64,000 bases of DNA, from assembly GCA_008632985.1 (NCBI GenBank), contig QPGO01000066.1:141771-205770 (forward strand). The letters run 5' to 3'. Below are positions 1 through 62,814 of the stretch, piece by piece. The translations under genes were made by a program, and so were the position numbers. The notes below the pieces were generated by a model, which was given only the letters and a program-made list of their open reading frames with translations, was not told the DNA's origin and did no database searches. The DNA comes from Psammoneis japonica (Eukaryota). Each line of letters opens with the position of its first letter. Position 1 is the first letter of the stretch.

Positions 1-3000
1 GGATGGATGCGTGGAGGAGCATCGCTCTTGCCATGTTGGAGACGGAGCGAATGCCGCGTTCTGCGACGCCGTTCTGATGGTGGGCGTTGGTTCCGCAAAA
101 ACGTAGACGTTGTTCGTGCTGTCGCATGTGTTGCACAAAAGCATTGGCCTTGAAAGCGCCAGAATCGGCAAGAAATTCTTGGATGATGACGCCGTGGTCC
201 ATCGCGTGCTTTTCAAACGCTTGCTTCGCTCGCACCGTTTCCACAGCAGAGAAACCAAGTTGGTGTTCAATGTGTGGGTAACCGGAGGCATGATCCACAA
301 AAATGCAGCCTCCTTTGTATTGCTGGGACGAGGCCTTCCCGCAGGAGTCGTAGGTTCGGCCGAGGAGACGGGATTCGAAGTGATCCACGCTGACGGCTTG
401 GCCTGGACGTAGATGCTCGGCTCGAAGAGCACCCTCACGCTCTGGAGTAGCCGCATGTTTGGCAGACTTGAGGGTTCGGCGATGTCCTTTGGCATGTTCG
501 CACACCTCGCACCGCGGAATGTCGCAACGCGAAGCATGCTTGAATTTGGGTCGGAGAAAAGGTTCGGCCCGAAGCAGGCCTTGGATGCGTGGCATGTTCA
601 GGTGACCAAACCTGAAGTGCCATTCTTGAAGGAGCTTCTGACCGGTGGTGAGGTTCTGGTTGTCCTCGTGCAACACAGACAGATTGACTTGAGGAGCGGG
701 TGCCACCCCGTTGGTCACAGACGCAACCGGCAAGTGATTTGACGCGTGCGCGACCTTGAGCGAACCGACGCCATCAACATGCACTCGAAATGAGTCCTCG
801 TCTCCCTCACATTTTCCTGTCACGCCATGTTCCTCACTGTAGAGGCGTTGTGGGGATAGAAGACATTGTCCGGCCTGAGGCACATGGTGCGCCATCGTCT
901 TGACGACGAGCTCAGAGCCGTCCTCGTCATGGAAAACCCAGGAGACGGGTCCGATGCCGGCGATGGTTAAGCCATTTGCTAGACCCCCCAGCTTCAATGG
1001 GCCATCAGGGATCGTCAGAGGTCCGACAAAGTTGTTTTCATTGTAAGTGATGGCTAAGGATGCGCCAGTGTCGCACATGACGGTGTGGCGCTCATGTGCT
1101 GGGCTCAGCAAAGCTTGCGGGTCGGCGGCGAGTTGTGCTAAAGAACGTTGGCCCGTCAATGCCTGCATAGAGGCATGAGCAGGACAGGCTTCGGTTCCGT
1201 CAGCAGCTGCCTGGAGAAGCTTCACAGGGTCTTGCCATGGAGTGGTGTCCACGAAACCAAACTTGGTGGACAGCTCGTCGAAACGAAAATAGTCCGGAGA
1301 GAGCTCCTCAACCGCATCAAAGCAGTGGCTCGGCTCGGTCGGGAGCGGGCCGAGGGCTTCCTCTGAATCACAGGTGTCGAAGTGGGACTCGGGGTCTTCT
1401 AGAGCTGGAGGGATGCAGCGGCCTGGGGAAGAGCATACGTCGTTCTCCCAGAGCTGCGTGAATTTCTTGCTCAGACAATGGTCCGGATCGCGCTCCACAA
1501 ATTCGGCAAGCACTTGTCGCGCCTTGATCTTGTTGTGTTCCACCAAACTGCCCGGATCTAACACCATCTTATCGTCTGGTTCTTCAATGATCGAGTAGAC
1601 CTGAGAGCTAGCTTTGGAGAAGCGAGAAGGGACATTGGAGAATGGATGCGTGGGAAGCTGACCGTTGAAAACAGACGCCCAGACCATGATAGCTCCAGTC
1701 AGCACCATCCAGGTAGAGGGGAAACCGTGAATGGTTGGGATGGATGCCTTACGGCGTATACGACGAGGTAAGACAGGAATCGGCGCACAGCAAATGTGTA
1801 GTAGCGTTTCCCAGAACATAGCAAACAGCCAGAAAACTCGGAGCTTCAAGAAGTTCCAGAAAAGCTCAAGACGAGAGCTCGGCGTTGCCTCCTCGACGCT
1901 ACAATCTACATCTTGGGGTTCGGGATCGTAAAATTCGAAACCGCGATGCTGGGTGCTTGGAGGTAAGTGCTCGTAGCTGTCTTCGAAAGGTAGGATGCTT
2001 GCCCCGGAAACGAGATCGTCTGACACATCGTCGGACAGACCTTCCACGTGAGTTGCGATCGTGTCATAAAACACGTCCGGATTTTGAATCTCGTGCATGG
2101 CATAGGCCGGAAATAGCTCGATAGCTGACGGTAGGGAGTCAAAAGAGGAGTGAGCGTCGGAGCACTCGGAGTAATCGTCAGCGTCTTCGGGGTCAACCGT
2201 TTCAACCAAGATGGGAGCGGGTTTGGCCACGGCAGTCTCCCTCTCGGCCGATGGAGCAGGAGTGAACGAGACGGTCGTAGTCACTGGAGTCGAACTCAAA
2301 GAGTCGTCCACAGGTGCACACCACATGCCGCAATAAACCAGCTCGTTAGGGTCAGAGGGTTCGTCTGTAGGCGGAGACGTCGTCTGCTCGGGAGGACCAA
2401 AAGGAATGCCCGAAGAGGGGTCCGACACAGCAGATAAATTTGCCGCAGCGGAGGTTTCGGTGTTGACAGACGGTTTCCCGGTGTGTTGAGCGGAGGAGTG
2501 GCCTTGACACATGCCCTTCTTGCCCGTTTCCTTGTTCACACACTTGTCGCACCAGTGCCAGGTCGTGCCTTTCTCGTCGGTGACAGTGGCACCTTTGTGA
2601 ACGAAACGCCAGGCCGGCTTGGGTGGTTTCTTGGAAGGGTTAGTCTTCCGGACGTCCGGAGGGTCATCCTTGGACTTGTCCGCCGTGCCCTTTTTGTCCT
2701 TCTTGCATTGCTCCTTGCAGGTGGGACACGTGCGTTTGGTGCACCCAACCTTGCCACAGCCGCAGCAATGCTTTTCCGAGTTGTCCTTGGCGAGGTTGGA
2801 TTCCGGGAGCTTGGCTGCTAAGGCAAGCCAATCTTCATTGCTAATGAGTTCGCCATGGGTCTTGGTGATCCAGCCAATGAGGCCAACAGGTCCAAGATCT
2901 GCATGGTCGGCATCCTTGGGGACTTCTGCCGGGTCACGCAAGCGACATTTGCGCTCCAAGCGCTTGACGGAGTCGAGCTTGGCAAAAACTTGACGATTGA

Positions 3001-3862
3001 AAAACTCGGAGGATGTCTTTGACACCTTAGATAAAACAGTAGACCCAGTTTCAACTGGTGACGCACAGTCCGTCTGCATGATCTTGAGCAGGCGTGGAGC
3101 TTCGGTTGCAAGCTCGGTGCAGTCCTCGCCAGGGTGGTTGTCCAGAGTTAAGTCGTTCAACTTTTCCTTGGCGGCCTTGACGTCAACCAGAGCACTGGCG
3201 TTGCAGGCATCCAGAGCCATCATAAATGAGACAGACCCCGGAAGATCCTTGCAGTTCTTCAAGTGATTGAACTTGGCTTCAATCTTTTCACGGAAGGTTT
3301 CGGTGACACGCGACTTGACGATGAGTTGTGACAAGCCGATGTCATCGATTTCATGCTGATCGTAGCCTTCGTCACCTGCAGCCGCCACACGGGTCTCATG
3401 TTCCTTCTCAAGGTCTTTGACAGTGAAGGCGTGAAGATGATCAAAAAGGTGCACGACCTTGCCGTCGACTTTCTTGAGATGGCAGAAAGTTTCTTGTCCG
3501 CGCGACTCGATCAAGTCCTGAATGGTCTTGACGAAGTGGTCTTTGTCCAGTTCAGCACTGGAACCGTTGGATAACTCAATCTGGCCGTTGAACTTGGATG
3601 TGGTTGCCGAAGCGAGTTGATCTCTGAGAGATCGCTCGATGGAGTCGACAGCTTTCGGATGGCGACGTTGCGAGGCAAAACGGCAGGTGCGGGTGTCGGT
3701 CTGCTCGTGCTTGTTGTTCAGAGCCGAACCACCCAGATGCACTCCATGAGAGTGGTGGACACCGCCGCGAAGCGGCGTGGGGATCGCAGGAGGGTTGGTC
3801 GAGGTTTGCATCTTGGCGAAGGCCTCAGCAAACATCTTGACGGTGTCAGGATCCATGGACAT
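1..3862 (-). CDS. Copia gag-pol polyprotein, at least 1287 codons, runs off the window
   Basis: Manual translation from ATG 3862 (MSMDPDTVKMF) stays open to position 2. It is absent from the ORF track because no stop occurs in the window. Motifs: zinc-knuckle-like CCGCGKVGCTKRTC (~2770-2730), aspartic protease CDTGAS (~1078-1061), GAG-pre-integrase WHFRFGH...CEVC (~620-495), integrase core SVDHFES...VDHASG...LADSG...NAHHQNGVAERGIR. Confidence 0.92.
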   Translation of the reverse strand, partial: MSMDPDTVKMFAEAFAKMQTSTNPPAIPTPLRGGVHHSHGVHLGGSALNNKHEQTDTRTCRFASQRRHPKAVDSIERSLRDQLASATTSKFNGQIELSNGSSAELDKDHFVKTIQDLIESRGQETFCHLKKVDGKVVHLFDHLHAFTVKDLEKEHETRVAAAGDEGYDQHEIDDIGLSQLIVKSRVTETFREKIEAKFNHLKNCKDLPGSVSFMMALDACNASALVDVKAAKEKLNDLTLDNHPGEDCTELATEAPRLLKIMQTDCASPVETGSTVLSKVSKTSSEFFNRQVFAKLDSVKRLERKCRLRDPAEVPKDADHADLGPVGLIGWITKTHGELISNEDWLALAAKLPESNLAKDNSEKHCCGCGKVGCTKRTCPTCKEQCKKDKKGTADKSKDDPPDVRKTNPSKKPPKPAWRFVHKGATVTDEKGTTWHWCDKCVNKETGKKGMCQGHSSAQHTGKPSVNTETSAAANLSAVSDPSSGIPFGPPEQTTSPPTDEPSDPNELVYCGMWCAPVDDSLSSTPVTTTVSFTPAPSAERETAVAKPAPILVETVDPEDADDYSECSDAHSSFDSLPSAIELFPAYAMHEIQNPDVFYDTIATHVEGLSDDVSDDLVSGASILPFEDSYEHLPPSTQHRGFEFYDPEPQDVDCSVEEATPSSRLELFWNFLKLRVFWLFAMFWETLLHICCAPIPVLPRRIRRKASIPTIHGFPSTWMVLTGAIMVWASVFNGQLPTHPFSNVPSRFSKASSQVYSIIEEPDDKMVLDPGSLVEHNKIKARQVLAEFVERDPDHCLSKKFTQLWENDVCSSPGRCIPPALEDPESHFDTCDSEEALGPLPTEPSHCFDAVEELSPDYFRFDELSTKFGFVDTTPWQDPVKLLQAAADGTEACPAHASMQALTGQRSLAQLAADPQALLSPAHERHTVMCDTGASLAITYNENNFVGPLTIPDGPLKLGGLANGLTIAGIGPVSWVFHDEDGSELVVKTMAHHVPQAGQCLLSPQRLYSEEHGVTGKCEGDEDSFRVHVDGVGSLKVAHASNHLPVASVTNGVAPAPQVNLSVLHEDNQNLTTGQKLLQEWHFRFGHLNMPRIQGLLRAEPFLRPKFKHASRCDIPRCEVCEHAKGHRRTLKSAKHAATPEREGALRAEHLRPGQAVSVDHFESRLLGRTYDSCGKASSQQYKGGCIFVDHASGYPHIEHQLGFSAVETVRAKQAFEKHAMDHGVIIQEFLADSGAFKANAFVQHMRQHEQRLRFCGTNAHHQNGVAERGIRSVSNMARAMLLHASI

Positions 3863-4163
3863 GGTTGTGGATGATTCGACATAGAGGATCGATTAGTGGG
3901 TAGGGATTGCGACACAGATGATCGCCGTTGGATTGCGACATAGAAGATTGCCGTTGGGTGGGATGTCGTCTGTAACGAGACGAACGAGTGGCAGCAACTC
4001 CGTTGCGAGTTGATGCCGGTGCGTGGATTGGGGTCGTAACCACTTGGGATACAACAATGCACTGTGTAGGATGGAGAGTTCAGGACTCTCTTGAGGTTGT
4101 ACAATACAACAGAGGATGATAAGAAGCAGGTTTGGGACAATAAGATACGCTAAAGATACGAAT

Positions 4164-4358
4164 TGTGAGAAGATCTCACGAGGGATTGGAGATGACATTA
4201 TGACCTAACGGTCGTGTGTGTCACTCCGATTACTATCGCTAGAAGACTCAACGGACATTTCTTCCGGAAGAAGAGATCCATGACCGGAAGCGTCATCCGT
4301 GAATCAGATTCGGTTGTTGACTCGTGACTGGGGGGGGGGCTTATTCCATTATCTCACA
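4164..4358 (-). repeat. 5' LTR of the copia element (195 bp)
   Basis: Perfect 7-bp terminal inverted repeat TGTGAGA (4164-4170) / TCTCACA (4352-4358), with canonical TG...CA ends, upstream of gag. The partner LTR and TSD are not visible. Confidence 0.75.
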
Positions 4359-4430
4359 CAACACCGCAAGGAGAGACCCATAATGATCTTGTGCAGATTG
4401 AAGTGAAGCAGCGAAGATCCTCTTTCAACC

Positions 4431-6822
4431 ATGCCTGACCAACCACAACAAGACAGCATTGCGGAAGACTTGCGATTGCAAGGAAACGATGCCTTTGGCA
4501 CACGCGATTGGGAACGGGCGGTGCAACTCTATCAAGAATCTGTGCGTGCATCTCCATCCGCCAAGGCGTACTCCAATTTGGCTGCAAGTCTATGCAAGTT
4601 GGGTCGTTATGATGAAGCAGAGTCACCAGCTGCTCGTGCTACCGCTCTAGAACCCAAGTGGGCCAAGGGATGGTGGCGACGGGGCAATGTGGCGGAGCTG
4701 CGCAAAATGTTTGGGCCGGCCTTGCAGTTTTATAACATTGCGCTTGAACTGCATCCGCAAGAACGGGCCTTTCAAAAGTCGGTCAAGGACATTCAGAAGC
4801 GTCTCAACATTGTTGACACCAAGAAGAAGAAGGGTCCCAATGGAGAATACGTGGTGCAAGACCTTCCCCATGCGGCGACCCGTGACGGCGTTGAAACCAA
4901 CCCTGCCGCCAAGGCGTGGTTTCGCATGCAAGATGAATTCGGTAGCCAAAACTCTTATACGTTGCGATCCCGTTACATGGCGACTGTAGAAGGCTCCTCT
5001 GAGATGATTCTTCAACGTCCCACATCGCAACAATATCTCTTTCAAGGATTTTCTCCATGGATTTGTGGATTAAAGTCGGCTGTGGGAGAACTCTCGTTGT
5101 GTCTGTCACCGGAGGCCACCATGCAGTGGAGGGCTCGAGTCGCACGCGGATTTGACTCTCAGGTATGTGTACACGGCTACCAGATCATCTGTCATAACAT
5201 TCAGTCATTTTTCGCTGACATTCTTTTTATTCTTTCTTGCTCCTTCAAAAAAAAAACAGGAAGAAGCCTATGGAACCGCAGAGGAAATGTTGGGAGGTTT
5301 TCCCACGGGTCAAGCAGCTGCAGAATTGTCATGTGGTATTGTTCACTTGGGTGGCTTGTACACGTCATTTGAAATGGGAGGCGGTCAAGGTCGTCGTCAA
5401 TTGTGCCCTCAACCCCAATTTTTGACGCGATACTTGGCCTACCAGCCCATTGCCGTTTTGTATAGTGTTGAGGGACTATTTCAAATGGCATGGAAACAGC
5501 ATGGATTTCAGAACGATAAGAATTTTCGATGCGCCAAGTCGGTTTTGGATGCCTCCAAAACATTCTACTCCAACATTGGGGCGCGTTATCCGCATACCAT
5601 TCCCAAGCCCAAACAAGACCCGTCTCCGCTCGAGATTGTTCAATACATCAAGCACAACTTGCACGGGTTCCAAAACGTGGGACAGGGGACTCCGTCAGTA
5701 CGTGTCCTTGCAGTATCGTGGGTCTATCTTATATGCCTGTACCTTGAAAATGTTTGGGGAATTTGGGCCGGCCTATCAAGTCGAAGAGTGGGCTCGCGAA
5801 TTCATAACGCTGGCTGACCAAGCATTCAATGTGTCGAAACAAGAGGCATTTGGTGAAAAAGGGAGTGCTTTTCGACTCGACTTTCGCATTGGCATGCACA
5901 TGTCGCAATTTCAAACACACAATGTATTGCGCGGCGAAAGCATCCATGGACCCTACTCGATGGAACAGTCATTGGATTTGTGCCTCGGTATTATTGAAAT
6001 GGCAATCAAGTGCAAGTGTACGGCGACAATGCCAGTTTCCCCGAGTATACTCGCGTTCAAAATGAAGTGGCTTGGCGTCGCAAGCCTTTGGCTCTGGCAC
6101 ATTCCGCCGTGGCGTCTCATCTCTCTACCATTAATGAGTTGTCGAATTTGGAGACGTTCAAAGAGGTTGCCGCTCATCACGGTTTCATTCCTGACGCGGA
6201 TGCTGATTGCGATCCCTTCGCCTTGATTGCTGAAAATTATCAGGTTGCTGCGACGAATGAACTCCCCGATGCCCCAGAGGCGGCGGTCTTTTGGTGGGCC
6301 CATGGTGCTAACATGGCCTTTGCGACTCCGACAAGTGCTTATACATTGGGCAACCTCCGAGCGGCCATCCAGTCAGCTCGAGCCGCCGAACAGGCTCGTG
6401 ACGTTTATCTTTTTGGGCCCAACCAACATGAAGGGGGCTCGTACGAAACTGTATGCAAACTTGTCGCAAGTCATTTTGAAGAAAAAGCCGACGACTTTGT
6501 GCTTCCCCAGGCAACGCTCGTTTCAGAGCCGGGTCAAAAGAAGTCCCTCAAGATTGGCGACGCTATAATTTGCCCCGACTTTGGTGCATACGAGCGAGCG
6601 GAACTCGAACGGTTGAAAAAGAACCCTTACGCCGACTTGTTGGATACAACCAAACTCGAAAAAGAGCACGGTGCCTCGTTTGAAGGAATCCCGAGTCTAG
6701 AGACTCTTTGCATTCGAGAATTGCACGTAGCAGGCTACGAGCATGCAAAAGGAGAAATGGATGGTGCTGTCATTCACTACAAGGCAGTGATGGCGGCAAA
6801 CGAGGAGGAAGCGAAGGAGTAA
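4431..6822 (+). CDS. TPR-domain protein with an unknown C-terminal region; one intron (5163-5259) and two apparent frameshifts (~5660, ~6010)
   Basis: N-terminal TPR triad (LRLQGNDAF...AYSNLAASLCKLGRYDEA...WAKGWWRRG). GTATGT...ACAG intron joins FDSQ to EEAYG. The protein-like reading passes from ORF 5152 to ORF 5450 to ORF 6010 with no intron signals at the switches. Confidence 0.7.
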
Positions 6823-7076
6823 AACGTACTCTATGGAATACTAGTATATTTTGAATGCTTTGATCATTAAGGAAAAGGCAACATAAGCATTTCAACTCTA
6901 ATATCATCTTGTCCGATCCATTGTGCCATTGTACAATTTCGCGCCGCCTTGACATGCATTGACAAGAATTGCAGGAGCTAGAACTCTCTCCATCATTGCA
7001 TAAGTTGCTGATCCGTTGCCACACACAACGATGAATTTTTGATGTGGTAACGTTAAAACTGATTCACGATAGAATA

Positions 7077-10635: not shown

Positions 10636-12208
10636 ATGAGGTTCTTCTCCGCGTTTCAAATGGCAGTCGCCATTATGGTGGTGTTGGCTCTACTACTACT
10701 ACCACCGCAGTCCAAGGCCGCAAAACCAGAAGATCTCTTCAGCCCTGTTGAACTCGATTCCATGATTGCGACTCGAGATCGTGCCCGAGAGGTCTTGAAG
10801 AAGAATAAATCCGCTCGTCGTCGGCCCCGCTTTGTTGGGGCTCCCAAGATCATGGGTATCCGTAGCACTACTCCACACGTTGGGTCTCCTGCGTCCCGTC
10901 TGGAAAGTGCTGACAGCAGGGTACGAACCGACAAAGACGAGCCTTTCAACACTGTTATCAACAAACTTCCAAACGAAAAAGACACAGGAATAAGCAAGGT
11001 TCATCTCCTTTTGTGTGCGACACTCTCGAGAGACCTTTACAAGGAAAAAAATACAATCAAGTTTGAAAACGATTTGAGACATGATACGGGACTAAAGGAT
11101 GTGGACGTTCGATTCTTGCACAGAGGCTTTACCATAACAGGTTTGCCTTCTGCTCTCAAGTTGCAAACGCCATTTGCTGCAGCCATTGATGGAGACACTT
11201 TAATCTTGGCTTGGCGGGGCACTGCAAGCTTTATGGATGTCATTGCGGATCTCAAGTTTGAACCGTGTTCTCCGTGGGCAAGTACTATGCCAGACCTTCA
11301 GGTCCAGAAAGCAATCTATGAGAAAGTTAAAAGGGACTTGGAACATCATGCGAAAGATATCCTCAGGTACGCTGTCACCGGCTACATGAAAGACAAGAAT
11401 GACCCCAGTATCCCTACGGACTCTGAAAAGAGTTGCGTACCTGTAAAGAGGATCATTCTTACCGGTCACTCTTTGGGTGGGGTAAGTGTTCCACATTTAG
11501 GATTATTGGTACCCATCGGCAGCATCATCGACCTCTCATATACCCGCACTCTCATTATGACGTCGGCAGGGCATTGCGCAAGTGGCTCATCTTGTGTTGA
11601 AACAACCAATAGATAGCAGCAGTGGACCGAGATCTTTGTTGGGCATTATAAATGACATTCTAGGGCGCAAGAAAGTAGAGCTCTCGGATCTCGCCTCTCA
11701 GCTCTCGGACAAAGGAGTAGATATACGCACAGTCGTATTCTCAGCTCCCATGTCGATTGCCGTGTCGGGTGATGACTCTGCACAAGTCGTCAAGTTCCTT
11801 CAAGATGAAATAGCACCCAAGATGTGCAACATTGTCTTCAGCACGGACGTGGTCCCTCATGGTTACGCCGACTTGAAGTTCATCAAAGCGTTCGCCGACG
11901 GACTCATTGACGATTTCGATGCCCTTGGGGAAGGTGTCGCACGAACCTTCCTCGAGTTTTTCTCGAGTATTATCGATAAGAGAAACGACGTGTTCGACCA
12001 ACTTACCAACTACCGTCACGTTGGTACAATTATTCATTACACCAAAAAAGGACCAGAATATCACTTGGACCTTCACGTAGACAAAGGCTTTGGATATGGC
12101 GGACTCCAAAAACACCAAGATCATCCCAAAGTTATTGAGACAGACGTGAAAACAGCTATATATGATCACAGCGATTGGTTAGGTCGCTTGCGCTTTCAAA
12201 ACCACTAA
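10636..12208 (+). CDS. Secreted class-3 (fungal-type) lipase; intron 11482-11569
   Basis: Signal peptide MRFFSAFQMAVAIMVVLALLLL; AWRGT oxyanion motif; GHSLGG nucleophile elbow followed by a GTAAGT...CAG intron; DVVP and YRHVG downstream. Confidence 0.88.
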
Positions 12209-12630
12209 GACGCTAATATATGTACCGTCGTGCTCCACTCGCAGCGCTTAATGCAGCCTTCTCCGACTATTTGCGTTAGCGAAATGCGGAGCACACATTC
12301 TCGTTGAACGCACGCAATATGTTTTGCCAACGAATACTTGGGCCAACATGCATAATATGGAATTACAGTAGCAAGAGTGCTTTGGTGTTCAACATACATA
12401 CAGTTTTAAAAAGATTAATTTCGAGATCCCTTGTCTCATACCAACCTATTTCGCAAGAAGAAAATTTAAAGAACGGATTGGACGTTCAGACGTTATTTTT
12501 TGAAAGGCATCGTGAATAAGCCACAGAGAACATGACGCACTGCACTGGACAGCAAGTGGTTCTTACACGCCCTCAGAATGAGAAATTTCGTGGGGATGTG
12601 GTTATTCGTGCATTTTATTCGGTGGTTGTC

Positions 12631-13226
12631 TCACACTACCCTGTTTTTGTTGTTGAAGTCTAACCATGGGCGCAAGCATTCCTTCAACAAATGGCGCAAT
12701 AAGCGAAGTGGAGAGTGCCAATTTGCGGAGGACAGTAAATCGGCACAATCTTTCTTTCGGCTGTCGCAACTCAGGCGACAATCATCGCTCAAAGACGACG
12801 TTGATGCAACTGCTTCGTCGTTCCGTAACGTGTCAAGAAAGATCCAGAACACTATCAAGAATACCATGCCAACGGCTACTCCCAAGATGAACGAATAAGC
12901 CAACAGTTTTTTGATCAGTTCACCAGCATCGTGGAACTCGTATCCGCTCATACAGATATAACCATACCCAAAAGGAGAGACCATTCCTCCACGAATGGCA
13001 ACATTCATCGACTCTGACGGATGCAATGATGAAGGATGACTCTTTTTGAAATCAAAGTGAGTCTTGAGAGAGTTGCGGCATTGAACTCGATACCTTCTAA
13101 GAGCAAGCATGCCTGGAGATCTGGGAGTGGCAAGCCGTTCGGGAACACGAATCGAGGCCGCTGAAACCATCAGCAACAACAGCAATGTGGCTTTGAGTTA
13201 AGGAGAAGAACAGAAAATCTCCTCAT
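12631..13226 (-). pseudogene. Copy A of a small signal-peptide/TM protein family (paralog of 18195-18938), frameshifted in the signal-peptide region
   Basis: ATG 13226 (MRRFSVLLL) matches the paralog start (MRRSFVFLL) but is out of frame with ORF 12631-13185. Shares its N-terminal region and C-terminus (DLLSSANWHSP.RLLRHLL.ECLRPWL) with the paralog. Confidence 0.6.
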
Positions 13227-13480
13227 GGTGGATGCTCTGCTGCCACAGTGACTCCTCCAGCGTCTTGATCACATCGAGCTGGGATTTTCGTGAGACACAA
13301 CATGATGCATGTTTGAAGCGGGACCAAGCGAAGAAACGCGCGTTGCTTGAGTCGTGTCATGTATCGTGTCGCGCATTACTGTGTATGATGTGTGTCGCTT
13401 CTTTCTGATGGTCGCCGTACAAAAAATCCAAAGAAAAAATGAGAAAGCAGTCTTCGCCGCCGCATGGTCCTCAAGCGATC

Positions 13481-14509
13481 ATGATGAAGCTCGTCCTCAC
13501 CACTTTAGCGATCTCCGTAGTCCTCACATTGGATGCTGCCTACCGACTCTGGAACGTTCGCAATGATGGTCAACTTGTTCCCTCTCCGATGAAGCACGTG
13601 CGTTGTGTTGACACCTGGGAGGACCTCCGAAGCAGAACTGCGAGCGCTAAGGAACATGATGTCGTCACGGTTTGTCATTTAGCGTCCTTAAAGGTTCCAG
13701 GTGGAGAAGGGCCAATCGTAGTTAAGGGGCTTGAGGCGCTCACGATTCAGTGCGCGGGTCAGTGTCTAATTGGTGGGGGTCGGACACAATTCGAGATTGA
13801 AGGGGTACGCAGCCTGACCTTCAAGGGCGTCGCGTTCCACGACGTTGTTGATACTCACGTAAAAATCAAGTTCCTGAAGAATATTGATCAAGCAGAAGTG
13901 AAATTCCAGGATTGCATGTTTTTCGGTAACTGGTATTCTCGCGGAAGTAATTACCCTAAGAACGCCGTCATCGCCTGCGAAAATGAAGAGCTCGGCATCG
14001 AAGCGTCCGGGCATGGTAAGGATGCAAGGCTCACCATTGAGAACTCAGACTTTACAAACAATAAGGTCCATGACTGTGTCATTTGTAATCGTGGCTGTGA
14101 CCTCAATGTGCACAGCACGTTATTCAAAAGCAATTACGCATTCTTTGACGGATGGAGCAGTGCCCTCATACGCAATTTCAGGAGCCTATGCGACATTGAT
14201 CTTGCTTGTGAGGCAAAGATGAAGGTTACTGACTCGTGTTTTATTCGAAATACTGGGAGTCTCACTCCTGCACTGTACGAGCAATGCATGGACTGTGTCG
14301 GAGCATCTCCTGGCATACAAGGGATCGCGGGTCGATACAACTTTCCTTGTAACGGGTTTTACTATCACAACTGGTCCTTCTATGACTGGAGTGAAGAAGA
14401 CAATTTTGAGAGGTCAGTCTTGCCGACATGCAAAGAATTTAATACTTTGGCGTGTGTGCGTTCTGAGCCACTTCACACTTTCAAGGATTTTGCTGGAAGT
14501 GTCGGGTAA
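13481..14509 (+). CDS. Secreted or membrane-anchored Cys/Asn-rich protein, probable right-handed parallel beta-helix (pectin-lyase-like fold)
   Basis: Hydrophobic N-terminus MMKLVLTTLAISVVLTL; repeated motifs FQDCMFFGN, IENSDFTNN, VHSTLFKSN, VTDSCFIRN. Confidence 0.7.
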   Translation: MMKLVLTTLAISVVLTLDAAYRLWNVRNDGQLVPSPMKHVRCVDTWEDLRSRTASAKEHDVVTVCHLASLKVPGGEGPIVVKGLEALTIQCAGQCLIGGGRTQFEIEGVRSLTFKGVAFHDVVDTHVKIKFLKNIDQAEVKFQDCMFFGNWYSRGSNYPKNAVIACENEELGIEASGHGKDARLTIENSDFTNNKVHDCVICNRGCDLNVHSTLFKSNYAFFDGWSSALIRNFRSLCDIDLACEAKMKVTDSCFIRNTGSLTPALYEQCMDCVGASPGIQGIAGRYNFPCNGFYYHNWSFYDWSEEDNFERSVLPTCKEFNTLACVRSEPLHTFKDFAGSVG

Positions 14510-16841
14510 AACAAGTCAGAAAACTGATGCTGTTGGGTACGACGTAGAATAATCCATATATTTCAGTCTATTCGCTTGTTTGTTTGATAGATTCTATCCT
14601 AAGTTTTGTAATTCAGTAGAATGATGCCATGCAACCTTCGTTTTTAATGCCAGTGACTCACAACACCGCACTGAAACTAAAAAGGCGCGCGTTTCGACAT
14701 GTGCACTGGAAACGGCAGAAAGAATCCAACAAATGCCTGTCACGTCATTGCATCTCGAAAACACAAGGAGAGATTTGAACAGCCAGACACGAGATGATGA
14801 TCCGAGGTGTAGAGAGAAGCACTCAAAGCCTCGTTTCACAGTGCTCATCACCAAATGGATGTACAGAAGAATGATGAATGGACCTTTGGTTGGAGTTCTT
14901 TGAAAGATTTCCAATTGAAAATCATTGAGCTCCAGGTCACCCATCAAGAAGACTTTTAAACAATGATGCATGGGTTTGCAGGGTTTCTGCAGAGTGTCAG
15001 TTCCAATGTGATGGTGTGATCTCTTTCCATTTTTTCTCCTGACTTTTTCTCGTCTTCAACAATTTGCAATTGACACAGCCAATCAGGAAAGGGCAGGGCT
15101 GCTCATCACCAATCAGAGCTCTCTGTCTGCCCTTTGACGTGACTGGCTTGCCAGCCATCCTTCCTGTCAACCTGGGTCCTTTTTCACCACATCCTTCATG
15201 CCCCCAACTTGCAATGTGTCATGCTTTGGCGCAGCTTGGATGTCACAAAAATGTTTGCTTTGCAGTTGATTTGCACTCTGCTGGTGTGGTTGACAGATGC
15301 AGCCAGCCAGCTGTGCAGCTTTGTCATGTCATGAGCAATCACCCTTCCACCTGCAGCAAACTTTGATGTTGCTTTTGCCCAAGACTGGGACACTTTGGAA
15401 CAGAAGCTGGCTTGATGCAGTGCCCATGTGAGCCAGACATGCCCCGGTCCCTCTCAGCACTCGTGCTGGAGACCTTTTCAAAGGCAACTTCTTTAGATTG
15501 CTCTTCACATTTGATTTTTTTAGCTCAAACTGGCAGGATCAGCTGGCAAAAAGCAAACAGAGAGGGTCATTCTGCCATTTGTGTCAGAGGTTCTTGTCTT
15601 CACTCTGGAAGGCAGGGTTGTTGTCTTTTTTCTTGTTGTGGCCTTGTCATGGAGAACATGGGCAGAGCCAGCAGCAGTGCTTGCCAGCTGATCTCTTTCC
15701 TCTAACTTGCTTTTGAGTGGCACAGGAATGGCTCCAGTTGGAGAGGAGTGGTGTTTGCACCTTTTCTGCTCATGACGGAAGGCAGCACCTTTGACAGTTT
15801 GGAAGCATTGATGCACTTGCAAACAGATCATGCAATTGCCCAGCCCTCACAACCATTTGACAAAACTTTAGGTTGATGGACCTCAGGTGCTGCCAGCCAC
15901 AATGCTTGCTGCTCAACAAGGCTCTGTGATGGCAAATTCCTCAGTGGCGTTTGTGCCAGTGGCAGTGACTCCTTGCTTGTCACTCACGATCACTGTCAGC
16001 AGCATTCTTGAGACAATGATGCTCAAAGCATGACATTTTCATGTTGGAAGATGCTAAGTCACCCTGATTGCCAGCACTGGAAAGAGCTTGCTTCTTCTCA
16101 TTCACAGTGCAGAACTCAGCAAGCAAGCTTGATGAACTCTGTGCACCAATCTTTCTCTGTCTTTTCCCATTTCCTTGCAGAGCTCAGACACCAGTGCTGC
16201 ATCAGAAAAGACAGCATGCTCCATGGCAACAATCAAAGATCACACAAACCTTTGTGCAGCCACATTCACTCCCCTTTGTGAGAGAGCCACGCTGCTGACG
16301 ATGTCACACCCACGCAGCTCATTCTCGGTGCAGTCAGCACTCTGTCTGCTCCAAGCCCTGGAGATGCTGTCCAACAAAGAACTCAAAACAAAAAGACAAA
16401 AAACAACAATGAGAGTGCCAGCAGCTTGGAAACATTCTGCACACAGCCAACAATGCCTGCTAGACTGCACATTTTGGTTTGAGGTTGGTTGGTCATGATG
16501 CTGTCACCAGACCTCTCACCAGCTCTTCACTCATGTTGAGATCCTCTAGAGCCAAGCTGACCAACCCAATGAAGACAAGCTCTGCAATGCACCATTGCCC
16601 ACCATGACCAATCCCACAGCTTTGCCAACATGGCCGTGAAGTGCGTGGCTGTCACACATGAGTGACCCCACCCCTGGATCTGCTGAGCACCATGTGATTG
16701 CTCCCCACCAACACTTTGATTTGTGTGGCAGTCCAGGCATGCACACAGAAGCCCAAAGTGCTTGCATGAAACTTGCATGAAACTCTAAGGGCAGATGTGT
16801 GGGATGTGCCAATTTCCACACATGAGATGCCCCGCCCCCAT

Positions 16842-17226
16842 GCTGGACAGCTTCAAAGCCACAAAAAACAACAATGAGGTGAGACATTAGATGAGTTTCT
16901 GACCATTGCAAGATGTCACAAAATCCTTGAAGTCATCCAAACCAACACTCAAGTTGACCATGATTTTTGAGCAGAGAGTGGCCAGTTGTTTGTCAGCTCT
17001 TGACCACTTTTTCACAAAGAGAGCAAGGCACCAAGCTGGACAGCTTCAAAGCCACAAAAAACAACAATGAGGTGAGACATGAGACAAGCTTCTGACCATT
17101 GCAAGATGTCACAAAATCCTTGAAGTCATCCAAACCAACACTCAAGTTGACCATGATTTTTGAGCAGAGAGTGGCCAGTTGTTTGTCAGCTCTTGACCAC
17201 TTTTTCACAAAGAGAGCAAGGCACCA
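16842..17226 (+). repeat. Tandem duplication, ~193-bp unit x2
   Basis: gctggacagcttcaaagccacaaaaaacaacaatgaggtgagacat...gagcaaggcaccaa starts at 16842 and at 17035. Confidence 0.9.
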
Positions 17227-17236
17227 AAAAACAAAA

Positions 17237-17690
17237 GATGACTCTGCACAAGTCATCAAGTTTCTTGAAGATAAAAGGGCGCCCAATCAATTGGTCAATC
17301 AACTCAACGATTGCTGGCCAGTGGCTTCAGCACAGATGTGGTCCCTCATGGTTGTGCTGACTTGAAGCTCATCAAAGCTTTCGCCAATGGACTCATTGAC
17401 GATTTTGATGCCTTTGGGGAAGGTGTCGCACAAACCTTCCTTGAGTTTTTCTCGAGTGCTGTCAAAAAGAGAAATGACATGTTCAGTCAACTTGCCAACT
17501 GCTGCCATGTTGGCACAATTTTTCATCACACCAAAAAAGGACCAGTGTGCATTGGACCTTCACGTTGACAAAGGCTTTGGATGTGGCAGACTCCAAAAAC
17601 ACCAAGATCACCCCAAAGTTGTCGAGACAGACGTGAAAACAGCTCTGCATGATCACAGCAAATGGTCGCTTGCGCTTTCAAAACCAATAA
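17237..17690 (+). pseudogene. Decayed copy of lipase exon 2 (source 11771-12210)
   Basis: Colinear alignment with the intact lipase; differences fall overwhelmingly at TpA and CpG. Confidence 0.92.
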
Positions 17691-18194
17691 AGACGCAAAT
17701 GTTTGGTGCTGCCATCTCTGGCTGTTTGCTCTAGCTAACACGCATGCTGTCGGATCACAGTAACAAGAGTGCTTGGTTGGTCAAGATACATCTAAAAGGT
17801 GTCTTTCGACATTTACAAGAGCTGCAGTCTCTACAAGAGCTGCAGTCTTACCCTCACTTATTCGGTTCGCCCCTTCTACTCAATCGTTTACACGACATGC
17901 TGTGAAACTGTTGGCTGTGCGTTTTTGGCTATATGGTTTTACTGGTCAACAAAGTCGCAGAAGTCTCGTCAACTTTTTTGCGGTGGAGAGTCCGCCTCCA
18001 TGGCTGAGTTAATCCTACGGCATTGTTATCTCATGAAGTTTCAGGCCCAATGTAGCCACGATATAGGAAAAACAGGGATAACGCAGCACTTAAAGTAGAA
18101 ACTGAATATGCTCTTTCACGCCCTCAACAAATGAAAAAAGAATTCGTGGACATGTGCCACTTTGGTTATTCGTTTATTCGAATCAGTGGTTATC

Positions 18195-18938
18195 TCACTG
18201 TTTGTTGTTGATGTTGTGCAACCAGGGGCGCAAGCATTCCGTCAACAAATGGCGCAACAAGCGAATTGGAGAATGCCAATTTGCAGAGGACAGTAAATCA
18301 TCGTCGTCTTCTTCTTTCTCTCCGATTTTTTGAGCATGGTTTCCAAGGTATAAACAAGCACCACCAAAGGTGTCACCAAAAACGGCCAAAGCTGAAAGGC
18401 CGCATTTACCTGAGCATGCTTTATAAAAACCGGCAATGGCTGCGGTGGTTCCACAAACGCTTCCCGTGCCATAGAAGATTCTTTCCATAACATTTTTTGT
18501 TTTCATACATTTGATAAATGAGACTCCTCCTATAGCTACCCCGCCAGCAGCCCATCCAAGATTCGCTCCAATTGCGAATTGTGGTGAACCAAATTTAGCA
18601 AGCACTTTTACAAAGTCCAACAATAATTTGATCTCTTCATAAGCTTCGTCTAACTCGGCCCTGCTCATACAGATGTAATCGGCGTCAGGAAAGATAATGT
18701 CTCCACCACGAAGGGTGACAATCTTCGACTCTGACGGGTGATGATGATGATGAAGGACGGTTGTTCTTTTTGAAGCGAAGCTGAGTATTGAGAGAGTTGC
18801 GGTGTTGAACTCGACGCTTTCCAGGAGCAAGCGTGATCTGGGAGCAGCAAGCCGTCCAGGAACACGAGTCGAGGCAGCTGAAAGCATCAGCAACAACAGA
18901 AGTGTGAGTTGAAGAAGAAAAACGAATGATCTTCTCAT
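18195..18938 (-). CDS. Copy B (intact, 247 aa) small signal-peptide protein with an LRGG motif and Gly/Ala-rich hydrophobic core
   Basis: Open ORF with signal peptide MRRSFVFLLQLTLLLLLMLSAAS and normal TA/CG content; paralogous to 12631-13226. Confidence 0.72.
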   Translation of the reverse strand: MRRSFVFLLQLTLLLLLMLSAASTRVPGRLAAPRSRLLLESVEFNTATLSILSFASKRTTVLHHHHHPSESKIVTLRGGDIIFPDADYICMSRAELDEAYEEIKLLLDFVKVLAKFGSPQFAIGANLGWAAGGVAIGGVSFIKCMKTKNVMERIFYGTGSVCGTTAAIAGFYKACSGKCGLSALAVFGDTFGGACLYLGNHAQKIGEKEEDDDDLLSSANWHSPIRLLRHLLTECLRPWLHNINNKQ

Positions 18939-19029
18939 GGTGTTGGTCGTTGCTCTGATGCCGCAGTGACTCCAACGTCTTCATCATATCGAGCTGGGGT
19001 TTTCGTGGGATGCACGATACGAATTTGAA

Positions 19030-22000
19030 CACGGTGGCTGTGGTGCTTCCTGGGCGAACGCATCTCCGAAGCAGCCAGCAGCCATGGCAGCTGTCGGTGC
19101 ATCTCGTTCATCAATTTGGTTTTCCTCGTATCTGTAGGCTTTTTAATGATGCTTTTTGGTGACTGTTGGTGCGCTTTCAGAAGCCGTGATCACCTGCAAA
19201 AATGGAAAGCTTTGCATCAAAGTGTCAGGGCAAGGCTTGCCATTGAGAACCCAGACTTTGCAAACAACAAGGTCCGTGACTGTGTCATTTGCAATCATGG
19301 CTGTGCCGTCAATGTGAGCAGCACGTTGTTCAAAAGCAATGGCGAGCTCTTTGACAGATGCGCGGAGCAGTCCCCTCCTCATGCACAGCTTCAGGAGCCT
19401 GTGTGATGTTGATCTTCCTTGCCTTCACCAGAAATGCCAGGAGTCTTGCTCCTGCACTCTGCAAGCAATGCTTGGAATGCATGGGAGCATTTCCTGACAT
19501 GCAAGGAATCACAAGTTGTTGCAACTTCCCATTCCATCACTGGAGTGTAGAAAGCCATTTGGAGAGAGGTCAGTCTTGCTGACACGCATGTCATTCGATG
19601 CTTCAGCATGCGTGCATTCTGAGCCACTTCACACTTTCAAGGATTTTGTTAAGTGCATTGCAGAATGATCCATGCATGCTTCAGAAGCGGCCTGCAGCCA
19701 TGGCAGGAGGTGTCGGCGCATCTCATTCATCAGCTTGGTTTTTCTTGCAGCTGCAGGCTTTAACGATGCTTTTTGGTGACTGTTGGTGTGCTTTCAGAAG
19801 CCGTGATCACCTGCAAAAATGAAAAGCTTTGCATCAAAGTGTCAGGGCAAGGCTTGTCATTGAGAACTCAGACTTTGCAAACAACAAGGTCCGTGACTGT
19901 GTCATTTGCAATCATGGCTGTGCCCTCAGTGTGAGCAGCACATTGTTCAAAAGCAGTGGCAAGCTCTTTGACAGATGCATGGAGCAGTGCCCTCACGCAC
20001 AGCTTCAGGAGCCTGTGTGATGTTGATCTTCCTTGCATTCACCAGAAATGCCAGGAGTCTTGCTCCTGCACTCTGCAAGCAATGCTTGGAATGCATGGGA
20101 GCATTTCCTGACACGCGAGGGATCACAAGTTGTTGCAACTTCCCTTGCAATGGGTTTTGCCATCACAGCTGGTCATTCCATCACTGCAGTGTAGAAAGCC
20201 ATTTGGAGAGGTCAGTCTTGCTGACATGCATGTCATTCGATGCTTCAGCATGCAAGCACTCTGAGCCACTTCACACTTTCAAGGATTTTGTCAAGTGCAT
20301 TGTAGATTGATCCATGTGTGCTTCAGTCTTTTTGTGCACTTGTTTAACAGAGTTTTGTGAATCAGCAGAATGATGCAATGCAACCTTTGTTTTGAATTCC
20401 AGTGAAAAACACCAAAAGTTTGTTTGAGCTCACCACACTTCCCCCAATCTGAAAGGGTGTGCTTTCTGACATGCACTGGAAATGGCAGAAAAATCCAACA
20501 AATGCTTGCCATGTTTGCTGCCATTGCATCTTGATTGCAAGGAGAGGCAAACACAAGATGACAACCCGAGGTGTGGAAAGAAGCACTCAAATCCTCATTT
20601 TGTCATGCTTGTCACCAAATGGATGGGCAGAAGAATGACGAATGGACCTTTGGTGAAAGAGTTTCAACTGAAAACTGTCAAACTCTGGGGCACCCATTGA
20701 GAGGATTTGTGTGATGCACAATTCCATGCAGTGTTTCTGCAGAGTCTGTTTCTCAATGCAATGATGTGATGGACTTCTGAACCCTGAATGTCTCTTTCCT
20801 TTCTTTCTCTTGACTTTCTTGACTTCTTTGATGACTTGCCATTGACACAGCCAGCACTTTGCTGATCAGATCTTTCTGTCTGCCCTTTCACATGCCTGAC
20901 TTGCCAGCTGTCCTGCCTGTCAATCTGGGCACTTTTTCATCACACCATTCATGCCTGTAACTTGTGTCTTCTGTCTTGAGTTGTTCACACTCTGCACACT
21001 TGGTGGTGACATTCATGTGATGCCATGTGGGTGGCTGTGTCACACAGTGCATCATGCAAAGTGCATGCAGGGCTGCGCCCTTCTTGTCCACACTTTGGCA
21101 CAGCTTGGTTGTCACAAAAAAATTGCTGCACACTCTGATTTGCATCCAGCAGGTGTGGTTGATGACACAGACAGCTGCTGTGGCTTTGTCTTGGCACAAG
21201 CAATCAACCTTGCACCTTTGGCAAACTTTGAGGTTGTTCCCACCAAGAGCTCCATCTGACACACCACCATGCCATCAAAGTGGACATGCTCTGGAGTGGA
21301 AGCTGGCCCAAAGTGGTGCACATGTGCTGAGCTGGACATGTCCAGAACACTCACAGCACACACATGCTGGAGAACTTTTTAATCTCTCTGAGTTGAGTGA
21401 CTTTTCCTCAGATTGCTCTCCATGCCTGGCTTCTCTGTGGCACAAATTGGCAGGATCAGCCAGCAAAAAAAAAAGTCTTGCTCTGTCATTTGAGCCCATG
21501 ACATGCCCAGCCAGGCTCTTGTCTTGACTCTGGGAAGACAGAATCATTGCTTGTTGTTCTCTTTTTGTGGCAGCCTTGTTGTGGAAAACTTGGGTGGAGC
21601 TGGCGGCAGTGCTCGCCAGCAGATCTTTTTCCTGACTTGATGATGAATGGCATGGGTGTGGCTCCAGCAAGCCAGAGGAGAGCAGCGCTTGTGCCTTTTC
21701 TGGCCCAGTTCACCCAGCTCAGGATGGAGGGCAAACAATTGTCTGCCTGCCAGAAATTTAGACTTTTCAGATGAGCCACAGCTTTCTGGCCCCATTGCAG
21801 TCAGTTGGTTGGCAGAAATGCTCTCCACAGCTGTTTCCTCCAGATTGCAGGGCTGCTGGAGTTGTTCCCACAGCACATCCAAACAAGTGCTGCTGTGGCC
21901 ATCCAATGCATCATTTTCTTCATCACATTTGCCACCATCCCCAACCTCCCAGACCCCTTGCATCTCAAGGACAAAGTCAATGGGTGCAAGCAAGTGATTT

Positions 22001-22600
22001 GGCTGGAGCAGCCACTCTCCTTTCATTGCAGCTTCTCATTGAACAGAATGGCCAATGATGTGATCTTCCATTGAACAAATCTTGCAAAGCACACGGGCTG
22101 TGCATCTCACAAATTCTTTGTCAACCATCACACGCAGTTGTGCTCTGTTGCACATGTTCATTTGCTCAGATGCTCTTTGCCCAAATGCTTTGATTTTTGT
22201 GGCAGCCCAGGTGCATGCACACAGAAGCAAGCTCAAAGTGCTGTGCAAAATTCCAAGGGCAGATGTGTGGGAGATGCCAAGCTCTGTGCATCAGGCACCA
22301 ACTTCAAAGCTGCAAAACCACAACGAGGTGAGATGATCTTCTCACCGCCCATTGCAAGATCTCATGTTGCAACAAAGTCCTCAAAGTCATCCCAGTCCCT
22401 GCTCAAGTTGACCATGCAACAGCTTTCCCACACTCTGGCCCAAACCATCCACAGCTTGTGTTTTGGGGATGATGCTTTCACACTCACCTGATGGCAGAGC
22501 TGGTTTCCGCAAGTTCCACCGCTCTTGTCACATAATGCGGCACTGTAACACCCAACACACATCCAGACAAGCAGATAAATGTGCCCGACAGTTGAGCATT
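19030..22600. other. TpA/CpG-depleted decayed domain D2
   Basis: TA nearly absent. Contains two decayed beta-helix gene fragments and the homolog of D1. Confidence 0.85.
19066..20300 (+). pseudogene. Two tandem (~620-bp) decayed copies of the 3' half of the beta-helix gene (source ~14024-14490)
   Basis: gcaaggctt...attgagaac.cagactttgcaaacaacaaggtcc...ctgagccacttcacactttcaaggattttg at ~19229-19648 and ~19847-20290; units start at ~19066 and ~19683. Confidence 0.9.
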
Positions 22601-49800: not shown

Positions 49801-50215
49801 GGTGGCTGACGTCAGGAAGTGATGAGCCTCATGAAAAAGATGTCATGATGTTGGTTGCAAATAAAGATGTTGCATCTGGCAAGTGGACCATGTTCTTCAA
49901 TGACCTGGTGACTGTGGCAAGTGTGGTGAATTTGTTCTTTGATGCTGGGCAGGAGGCGACCAGGCCAGAGAAATTGAAAAGCAATCAGATGAGGCGACAG
50001 TGAAGCAAGTTTTGGGAAATCTTCCATATTTAGAGAAAATGTGTGAGAGCCTTTGCAGCATTTGATTTTCAGATTGCAGTGGAGGGCACAGGCCAATCTT
50101 TGTTGATGTTTCTCCCAGAGCGCAATACGAGATGGTTTCTTGATTCTAAAAATGATTGTGGCTGGACGTTGACACACTTGTATAGACATTCGACTGTAAG
50201 AATGTGAAAGCCTTT

Positions 50216-62781: not shown

Positions 62782-62814
<33 letters not shown>

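Follow-up and report, generated by a model that had tools for sequence, protein, structure and literature searches.

In fungi, RIP converts CpA to TpA, raising TA content and making stop codons. Repeats treated in this way are full of transitions at one dinucleotide, and the duplicates described here differ from each other mostly in the same manner. In the element described here, however, TA is destroyed and no stops are made. The APOBEC3 and ADAR enzymes of animals are strand-specific, giving G to A or A to G on the plus strand, and are linked either to reverse transcription or to double-stranded RNA. They leave clustered, deaminase-type transitions with a neighbour-base preference in retroelements, as is the case for our element, yet in the DNA analyzed here both strands are hit and non-retroelement DNA is hit as well.

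TpA-directed hypermutation has been reported once so far, in a 2026 preprint on one alga and its integrated viruses. According to that preprint, de novo mutations in mutation-accumulation lines of Bigelowiella natans occur only at TpA (to TpG or CpA), in integrated viral DNA (Mettrop et al., bioRxiv 10.64898/2026.01.13.699255, 2026). In the same preprint, reverse transcriptase and DDE domains are over-represented among TpA-poor coding sequences, the mutation opposes the usual GC to AT bias, and an ADAT2/TadA-type adenine deaminase is named as the proposed enzyme; the words diatom, CpG and flanking are absent from its text (bioRxiv 10.64898/2026.01.13.699255). Literature searches for TpA hypermutation in diatoms gave no such report among the matches listed, in which the B. 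natans preprint was the sole TpA match. Additionally, diatom genomes code for DNMT4 enzymes, which are relatives of fungal RID and have no known function (PMC9998398); as a link to a RID-like system they are a lead only.

The DNA analyzed here (the window) is a stretch of 64,000 nucleotides from the diatom Psammoneis japonica (contig QPGO01000066.1, positions 141,771 to 205,770), one end of which carries part of an LTR retrotransposon. B. natans resembles the family found in this window in that TpA becomes TpG or CpA, on either strand, in a regional and patchy way and against the usual GC to AT bias. However, B. natans is a chlorarachniophyte (Rhizaria) with giant-virus and virophage insertions, while the diatom data concern duplicated segments and a family of LTR retrotransposons. 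Events in B. natans were measured de novo in mutation-accumulation lines, whereas the diatom process is inferred from the comparison of copies. Unlike in B. natans, some blocks of the diatom window have lost CpG too, and the surviving TA is biased towards YTA.

Structure of the element and distribution of its TA

A single frame of 1287 codons (1287 aa), cut off at the window start, contains no stops, versus 28–55 in the other five frames (Table 1). Gag is followed by a protease with the D-T-G motif and then by integrase, the same gene order as in diatom Ty1/copia elements; the closest known elements are presumably those of the diatom 'CoDi' groups. Among 8000 scored candidates, 228 proteins matched as copia-type polyproteins at E<=1e-3, the best with E=2.6e-151 and 59% identity. 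Over the protease-integrase part, identity to copia-type polyproteins from Fragilaria crotonensis and environmental contigs was 43–61% (best BLASTP segment, 120 listed hits). Homologs carrying PF07727, PF13976 and PF22936 include F. crotonensis proteins, and the RT domain PF07727 is located downstream in copia-type homologs. Pfam gave weak hits in the window protein itself, none of which reached the cut-off (gag_pre-integrs, E=1.2e-4; Pol_BBD, E=0.006). A tblastn search with the protein of the element and 10 homologs as queries found no further copia copies in the window beyond 1–3900. A 5' LTR at the element start is read from doubled word depth, which is ~6900 at 3970–4263 versus ~1000–3800 within the element, together with loose ends at 4329; its limits and those of the leader are approximate because the 3' LTR is outside the window.

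Table 1. Parts of the retrotransposon within the window (o/e, observed/expected ratio).
Feature	Positions	Strand	Basis and composition
Gag-protease-integrase frame of a Ty1/copia-type LTR retrotransposon	2..3862	-	ORF list, stop counts, homology; reverse transcriptase beyond window start
TA-poor patch 1, covering gag	2301..3862	-	14 TA, o/e 0.18; CG o/e 0.88; Poisson p=2e-6 versus host-gene rate
Little-affected stretch, gag to protease	1400..2300	-	28 TA, o/e 0.57, equal to host rate
TA-poor patch 2, protease and integrase	1..1399	-	15 TA, o/e 0.23; CG o/e 0.97; p=4e-4
5' untranslated leader and 5' LTR, limits approximate	3863..4329	-	Word depth, loose ends; TA o/e 0.64, not depleted

Across 1–3862 the TA o/e is 0.29. 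Host genes of the window have a TA o/e of 0.503 (811 observed, 1612 expected), a rate at which 97.6 TA would be expected in the element against the 57 counted (Poisson p=6e-6). The depletion is regional, with two patches at o/e ~0.2 located beside stretches at 0.5–0.64 and host genes at 0.50. The preliminary description of this locus had called the frame open and CpG-rich, with one Tyr in its first ~505 codons, about a dozen TA in 2400–3860 and a less affected interval at ~1400–2300. All of this was borne out by counting: there are 0 stops and a CG o/e of 0.95 over the gag-protease-integrase part spanned by the window, one Tyr in aa 1–505, 11 TA in 2400–3860 (o/e 0.15), and 28 TA in 1400–2300 against 24.5 expected at the host rate, which sets this interval apart from its flanks (binomial p=9e-5). 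Its further proposal, that TpA to CpA/TpG change is independent of CpG decay, is supported here, as the element shows no decay of CpG by 5-methylcytosine (CG o/e 0.95). Fungal RIP was rejected as an explanation, given the depletion of TA (o/e 0.29) and the lack of stops.

Surviving TA in the element has the coding-strand context YTA in 49 of 57 cases, versus 441 of 810 in host genes, a strand asymmetry that a symmetric DNA-level process would not predict. RCA/YCA and RTG/YTG ratios, used as a test of direction, gave weak shifts (p=0.04 and 0.012).

Tyrosine columns and differences between copies

Tyr makes up 1.09% of the element's protein; in 120 relatives the median is 3.0% and the lowest value 1.71%. 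His (4.9% versus 3.36%) and Cys (2.95% versus 1.78%) are raised. At 11 columns with conserved Tyr among 60 homologs, the window copy keeps one and otherwise has His (4), Cys (2), Phe (3) or Ser (1); the homologs themselves retain Tyr at these columns with a median of 0.88 and a minimum of 0.68. Across 67 related loci, Tyr retention is 0.22–1.0, versus 0.11 in the window copy. The loss is specific to Tyr: at other conserved columns the window copy retains 223 of 257 residues (86.8%; homolog median 90.6%, range 73–98%), which is normal for the family. The preliminary description had left open that relatives might be equally poor in Tyr and TA. They are not: Tyr persists in the 60 homologs, and TA o/e among 37 related loci has a median of 0.63 (minimum 0.31), versus 0.24 for the window copy. 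The six motifs in which it had read His, Cys or Pro in place of Tyr or Leu are all present in the translation, and all fall on such columns.

Twelve Tyr replacements were identified in all. Both directions of change are seen on the coding strand, with His at five columns and Cys at three; the other four are transversions (Phe three times, TTY; Ser once, TCT), so the change is not purely TpA to CpA/TpG. Phe is the commonest natural substitute for Tyr among relatives; in the window copy it occupies two Tyr columns that rank among the most conserved (59/60 and 35/36). In patch 2, Tyr is replaced by His at aa992 (Tyr in 60/60 relatives), aa993 (43/60), aa1039 and aa1123 (36/60) and by Cys at aa1174 (33/60). 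At aa1196, where relatives have L, V, I or M, the window copy reads CCA and another copy of the family CTG.

Copies of the family were compared in 827 contigs of one sequencing run (X1), which may be the sample behind the window assembly, aligned at >=80% likeness. Two further runs (X2 and X3) gave no aligned contigs, which does not speak for absence of the family there. The X1 contigs reveal a multi-copy family in which differences between copies are centred on TA. Transitions, C to T and G to A among them, make up 69 of 74 variant places. Dinucleotides were tallied for 40 of the 74 variant rows, corresponding to 33 sites. Single transitions made or broke TA in 12 of 23 cases, versus 18.6% expected (p=3e-4), and touched CG in 6 of 23, versus 28.9% expected. 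Seven adjacent TG/CA double differences were also found, three of them on codons that are Tyr in relatives: aa52 (21/21), aa243 (25/28) and aa320 (27/31). At each of the three the window copy has His (CAY) and other copies have Cys (TGY); these doubles, like the CCA/CTG difference at aa1196, are separate resolutions of one ancestral TA. At aa929 the window copy has ATG and the others ATA at depth 3234/3538, relatives having Ile in 55/57, which points to a TA loss private to the window copy, with polarity here and elsewhere taken from relatives' proteins and not from a tree of the copies. Conversely, TA at positions 1690, 1820, 1900 and 1907 is kept in the window copy and lost in other copies. 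Seven Tyr to His/Cys sites (aa 266, 452, 992, 993, 1039, 1123 and 1174) had no alternative letter among the 40 of 74 rows; as this applies to most such sites, these changes may have become fixed in the family long ago.

That neutral decay, a general under-representation of TpA, or an assembly or base-calling artefact lies behind these patterns is extremely improbable. Although host genes of the window are already low (TA o/e 0.50), the element is significantly below their rate (p=6e-6), its loss is Tyr-specific, and its frame is open with CpG intact. Contigs of the run repeat the TA-poor stretches with 0–1 differences; an assembly artefact was rejected on these grounds.

Duplicated DNA outside the element was changed likewise. 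In an inverted-repeat arm of non-copia DNA all 18 of 18 TA are changed (TG 8, CA 7, TT 2, GA 1), and of 30 TA in a tandem pair, also non-copia, one is kept (TG 14, CA 8, CG 3, other 4). Among tandem duplicates, no neighbour-base preference of TA loss was found, 31 of 46 TA with a 5' purine and 26 of 38 with a 5' pyrimidine being changed. In other blocks of the window both TA and CG are lost, and it is these blocks, not the element, whose CG o/e (0.03–0.3) fits CpG decay by 5-methylcytosine. A Pfam search of 95 open frames in the TA/CG-free blocks gave choice-of-anchor I fragments only and no transposon domains.

These duplicates bear on the idea that an enzyme resembling ADAR acts on the RNA of the element, editing A that follows U, and that retrotransposition then fixes the edits. 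The target is indeed a retroelement, A to G with a 5' T is seen, and the context of surviving TA is strand-asymmetric. However, such editing predicts A to G on the coding strand only, while T to C (His, at 5 columns) matches or exceeds A to G (Cys, at 3 columns) in frequency, and the duplicated non-retroelement DNA was converted likewise. ADARs are not known outside animals, which also counts against this idea, and we regard it as very unlikely. ADAR-type editing as such was rejected, both strands and non-retroelement DNA being affected.

Age of the TA loss and state of the element

High-depth contigs (word depth 725–909) differ from the TA-poor parts of the window copy at 0, 1, 1 and 5 positions; diverged single copies have a word depth of ~30–60. 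Since abundant, near-identical copies have the TA-poor sequence in common, most of the erosion is older than the last amplification. Judging from these alignments, most TA loss in the window copy was probably inherited from a recent family master, with some events private to it. The view in the preliminary description that the element was caught at an early stage and crippled is thus only partly supported, and the early stage is not supported as stated. Its expectation of missense change without stops holds (0 stops; Tyr to His/Cys, Ile to Met, Leu to Pro). The claim that this cripples the element is likewise not supported as stated, as columns invariant across 15 relatives are all intact, among them the D-T-G of the protease, the H..H..C..C finger and the D, D and E positions. 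What stands of that interpretation is a recurrent, patchy TpA process.

An intact, abundant element could also reflect selection, if an active lineage avoids TA (UA in RNA), for instance to evade a nuclease that cuts at UA or a host factor directed at TA, making low TA and Tyr an adapted family trait. The TA-poor state in abundant near-identical copies (0–5 differences), the open frame with its family-invariant residues, the normal retention of non-Tyr conserved columns, the conservative Tyr to Phe changes at the 59/60 and 35/36 columns, and the coding-strand-specific context of survivors (YTA 49/57), expected if RNA matters, all fit such selection. However, inserted copies are not under selection for expression, yet they differ mostly at TA, including His versus Cys at one ancestral Tyr codon and Ile to Met at a conserved site. 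TA to TG/CA change is also present in non-coding or pseudogene duplicates of the window, and the leader and LTR, which are in the RNA too, are undepleted. Selection on its own is thus unlikely, but it may be compatible with a mutational process, in the form of mutation pressure filtered by selection.

A probable TpA-directed process in a diatom copia family

We consider it probable that a multi-copy diatom copia family has been the repeated target of transitions directed at TpA at the level of DNA. On the evidence of the copies, recurrent change of TpA to CpA/TpG does take place in this family, in patches and, in this element, without a link to loss of CpG. T to C or A to G at TpA would yield CpA or TpG; TAY Tyr codons would become CAY (His) or TGY (Cys), ATA (Ile) would become ATG (Met), and CTA/TTA (Leu) would become CCA/TCA or CTG/TTG. 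TAA and TAG would be removed and, because TpA transitions cannot make stops from sense codons, the frame would stay open. The process would act patchily and separately in different copies, without CpG decay in this copia family. Candidate agents would be a thymine-modifying enzyme or, by analogy with B. natans, an adenine deaminase of ADAT2/TadA type. The process may be a defence aimed at repeats, with targeting by repeat or foreign status, and may also have made the TA- and CG-free blocks of the window.

The element's most abundant part is its LTR, and this is undepleted (TA o/e 0.64 with the leader), an observation that counts against the proposed process.

A more tentative extension, possible though doubtful, is that diatoms have TpA hypermutation of their own and that the copia family survived it by shedding its targets. 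The system may be like that of the chlorarachniophyte and perhaps old within the SAR group, and the TpA process together with CpG decay may grind repeats and dead duplicates into sequence without TA or CG. The lineage may then not be dying, having shed nearly all targets, conserved Tyr included, while keeping its frame and catalytic residues, and may afterwards have multiplied to tens of copies. The coding-strand bias (RTA lost, YTA kept) would then hint at action on a single-stranded intermediate.

Because the process would be unable to create stops, eroded elements would pass as intact in annotation pipelines, and care should also be taken with TA-free DNA, which yields long spurious open frames. 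If the TpA-directed process is true, the family would be a ready test system, since it has many copies and the differences among them lend themselves to polarisation and dating, and the signature would reach a further, major group of phytoplankton, the diatoms, as well as transposons.

Base composition and coding capacity of the element

The element shares the gag, protease, integrase gene order of Ty1/copia. Its frame has no stops over 2-3862, versus 28-55 in the five other frames; the reverse transcriptase falls beyond the window start and the 3' LTR is not within the window. Among 8000 scored candidates, 228 proteins matched the protease-integrase part at E<=1e-3, the best at E=2.6e-151 with 59% identity, and the named matches come from the diatom Fragilaria crotonensis, where they are annotated as hypothetical proteins. 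Copia-type domains (PF13976, PF22936, PF07727) are present in the matched proteins; a Pfam run on the element's own protein gave sub-threshold matches only. In an alignment with 15 relatives every invariant column is intact in the element, including D-T-G-A-S, H..FGH, C..C, DHFE, VD and AER, which we take to be protease and integrase motifs.

Within 1-3862 the element contains 57 TA dinucleotides, an observed/expected ratio (o/e) of 0.29, while its CG o/e is 0.95. At the pooled rate of the window's host genes (TA o/e 0.503), 97.6 TA would be expected (Poisson p=6e-6). Only 11 TA are found in 2400-3860, and 1400-2300 differs in TA from its flanks (p=9e-5), the patchiness that the preliminary description had proposed. 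Its observations on the open frame, TA, CpG, tyrosine and motifs were borne out in all details. The adjoining host genes are ordinary (TPR, mitochondrial carrier, IPP transferase, glycoside hydrolase 2, BTB-MATH). Across the window the host genes themselves reach a TA o/e of only 0.50 (811 observed, 1612 expected), with CG near 1.0; the TA-removing pressure may leak genome-wide.

Features of the element and of the remaining window (aa, codon position in the element's frame)
Feature	Position	Strand	Details
gag-protease-integrase open frame	2-3862	-	1287 codons, continues past window start
Protease-integrase	1-1399		TA o/e 0.23
Stretch between gag and protease	1400-2300		TA o/e 0.57
gag	2301-3862		TA o/e 0.18
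Leader and probable 5' LTR	3863-4329		upstream of frame; TA o/e 0.64; word depth doubled at 3970-4263; loose contig ends at 4329
His/Cys double sites	aa52, aa243, aa320		Tyr in 21/21, 25/28 and 27/31 relatives
Double site	aa1196		Pro CCA in element, Leu CTG in others; Leu/Val/Ile/Met column
Border double sites fitting ancestral T-A across codons	aa939, aa219		Thr in 41/58 and 23/31 relatives
Border double site	aa1198		Ile in element, Val in other copies; Val in 52/60 relatives
Tandem duplication, ~5.5 kb	11771-16962, 17237-22416		identity 66-80%
TA- and CG-poor blocks	~15000-17500, 19000-22500, 43000-50000, 61000-64000		TA, CG o/e ~0.01-0.3
Inverted repeat arms	42807-43374, 49213-49799		flank largest TA/CG-free block
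Choice-of-anchor I gene fragments (PF22494)	45198-46701	-	E=3.9e-13, 6.4e-9, 0.0076; differing frames, inside TA/CG-free block

Tyrosine replacement compared with related loci

A single tyrosine occurs among the first 505 codons. Overall the element's Tyr content is 1.09%, versus a median of 3.0% (minimum 1.71%) across 120 relatives, while His (4.9% versus 3.36%) and Cys (2.95% versus 1.78%) are raised. When the frame was aligned with 60 homologs, 14 columns carried Tyr in at least half of them; here the element has Tyr at 2, His at 5, Cys at 3, Phe at 3 and Ser at 1. The Phe and Ser replacements require transversions, and Phe is the usual natural replacement of Tyr in relatives. At the 11 columns where 70% or more of the homologs carry Tyr, the element keeps it at 1, and a leave-one-out comparison gives the homologs a median Tyr retention of 88% at conserved-Tyr columns (minimum 68%). 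Other conserved columns are kept at 223 of 257 (86.8%), within the homolog range of 73-98%, so that Tyr has been lost specifically rather than through general decay. Each of the six motifs quoted in the preliminary description lies on a column where relatives carry a conserved Tyr or Leu.

We also took 80 related loci from metagenome contigs. For 37 of them, whose integrase match is long, the median TA o/e in the matched part is 0.63 (minimum 0.31; element 0.24). At least 8 conserved-Tyr positions could be scored in 67 loci; their Tyr retention is 0.22-1.0 (element 0.11), and none of these 67 has a His/Cys-dominated profile. The alternative that relatives carry the same low TA content and His/Cys residues thus fails for the relatives; for the family's own recent master it holds only in part. 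One related copia locus from a public contig, L001 (1620-2807), is low in TA (o/e 0.31 in its integrase part, 0.46 overall) and has a CG o/e of 1.1-1.2. It retains 23 of 26 conserved tyrosines, so that TA is avoided there without Tyr loss.

Differences between family copies

For copy comparison, 827 contigs of X1, a sequencing run containing 0.61 of the sampled words from 1-4400, were aligned to the element stretch at 80% likeness. Summed word depth is ~800-7000 over the element versus ~30-60 for diverged single contigs, which points to a family with tens of copies. Transitions account for 69 of 74 variant places. Context counts rest on 40 of the 74 variant rows (33 sites). In this set a TA is created or destroyed by 12 of the 23 single transitions (18.6% expected, p=3e-4), and 6 of 23 touch CpG (28.9% expected), giving no CpG excess. 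At six of the twelve the element has CA/TG and other copies TA, with TA making up most of the depth at 1076 and the whole of it at 3512; at the remaining six TA is retained in the element and other copies have CA/TG.

At seven sites two adjacent bases differ together, one copy having TG and another CA. Three of these sites encode His (CAY) in the element and Cys (TGY) elsewhere in the family, at columns that are Tyr in relatives; three others span codon borders, among which aa1198 lacks outgroup support for an ancestral TA because relatives favour Val. At aa929 the element has Met (ATG) and most copies Ile (ATA); the residue is Ile in 55 of 57 relatives. The simplest reading is that single ancestral TA dinucleotides turned into CA in some copies and, independently, into TG in others, with private losses in addition. 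Selection on a family consensus cannot yield such a pattern, but recurrent mutation at TpA can. Support is good for the core inference of the preliminary description, a missense-making process that is directed at TpA and does not depend on CpG decay.

High-depth contigs (725-909) differ from the element at 0 places in 352-574, 1 in 2173-2461, 1 in 2510-2721 and 5 in 2744-3022, so the abundant copies carry its TA-poor sequence. At the Tyr-to-His/Cys sites 266, 452, 992, 993, 1039, 1123 and 1174 the 40 counted rows contain no alternative letter. Thus the bulk of TA erosion is older than the family's last amplification, and the eroded version itself multiplied. Taken with the intact invariant residues, these data support neither the proposal that the element is crippled nor the proposal that its insertion was caught early.

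TA loss elsewhere in the window and its likely process

The four TA- and CG-poor blocks have CA/TG o/e of ~1.5-2.2 and are complex and non-repetitive in sequence. Among 128 bins of 500 bases, 27 are low in both TA and CG, 10 are low in TA with CG kept, and none is low in CG with TA kept, counts that fit the earlier view of TA loss before, or faster than, CG loss. The left inverted repeat arm is normal, with 18 TA and 36 CG. In the right arm these TA read TG (8), CA (7), TT (2) and GA (1), with none kept, and the CG read TG (15), CA (11), CG (8) and others (2). In the tandem duplication, portions of either copy are converted from TA and from CG to TG/CA. Between 13959-15211 and 19796-20964, 30 TA became TG (14), CA (8), CG (3) or other (4), with 1 kept, and 38 CG became CA (16), TG (13) or other (7), with 2 kept; CA and TG are exchanged at 14/102 and 8/95 sites. 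The choice-of-anchor I fragments are a dead gene, not a transposon, and their position inside a TA/CG-free block argues that TA loss is not tied to reverse transcription. Separately, a single uninterrupted frame of 5608 codons spans 24915-41738 (-); it contains numerous tandem repeats of ~480 and 600 bases (identity 78-95%), and further long frames overlap it on the opposite strand.

Of the 57 TA that survive in the element, 49 have a pyrimidine immediately 5' on the coding strand (YTA), versus 441 of 810 (~54%) in host genes (p=1.4e-6); the YTA fraction in 78 related loci has a median of 0.54 and a maximum of 0.69. Split by codon phase, the bias reaches significance at 1-2 and 2-3, and phase 3-1 leans the same way (p=0.15). 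The 3' neighbour of surviving TA in the element has no effect, and the tandem duplicates have no pyrimidine preference at TA. The YTA bias is not expected from a process that acts symmetrically on double-stranded DNA; it could reflect action on a single-stranded intermediate or RNA-level selection.

The element's signature is the same in kind as TpA hypermutation in Bigelowiella natans. According to a 2026 preprint, mutation-accumulation lines of that alga acquired de novo mutations at ~1000-fold the base rate, all of them at TpA and yielding TpG or CpA; these are confined to some lines and sit in an integrated giant virus and a virophage. Reverse transcriptase and DDE domains are over-represented among its TpA-poor coding sequences, and an ADAT2-like DNA adenine deaminase is proposed (bioRxiv 10.64898/2026.01.13.699255). 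The words diatom, CpG and flanking are absent from the preprint text, and we found no diatom report of TpA hypermutation in the literature searched. A TpA-directed process of the B. natans type acting on the diatom element would best explain its TA loss, presumably with an enzyme behind the TpA change. Diatoms encode DNMT4 enzymes akin to RID, the fungal RIP enzyme, with function given as unknown (PMC9998398); these are a lead for the CpG side alone. The element is probably a further case of the recently described TpA hypermutation, a finding that would matter if the TpA process proves general in diatoms.
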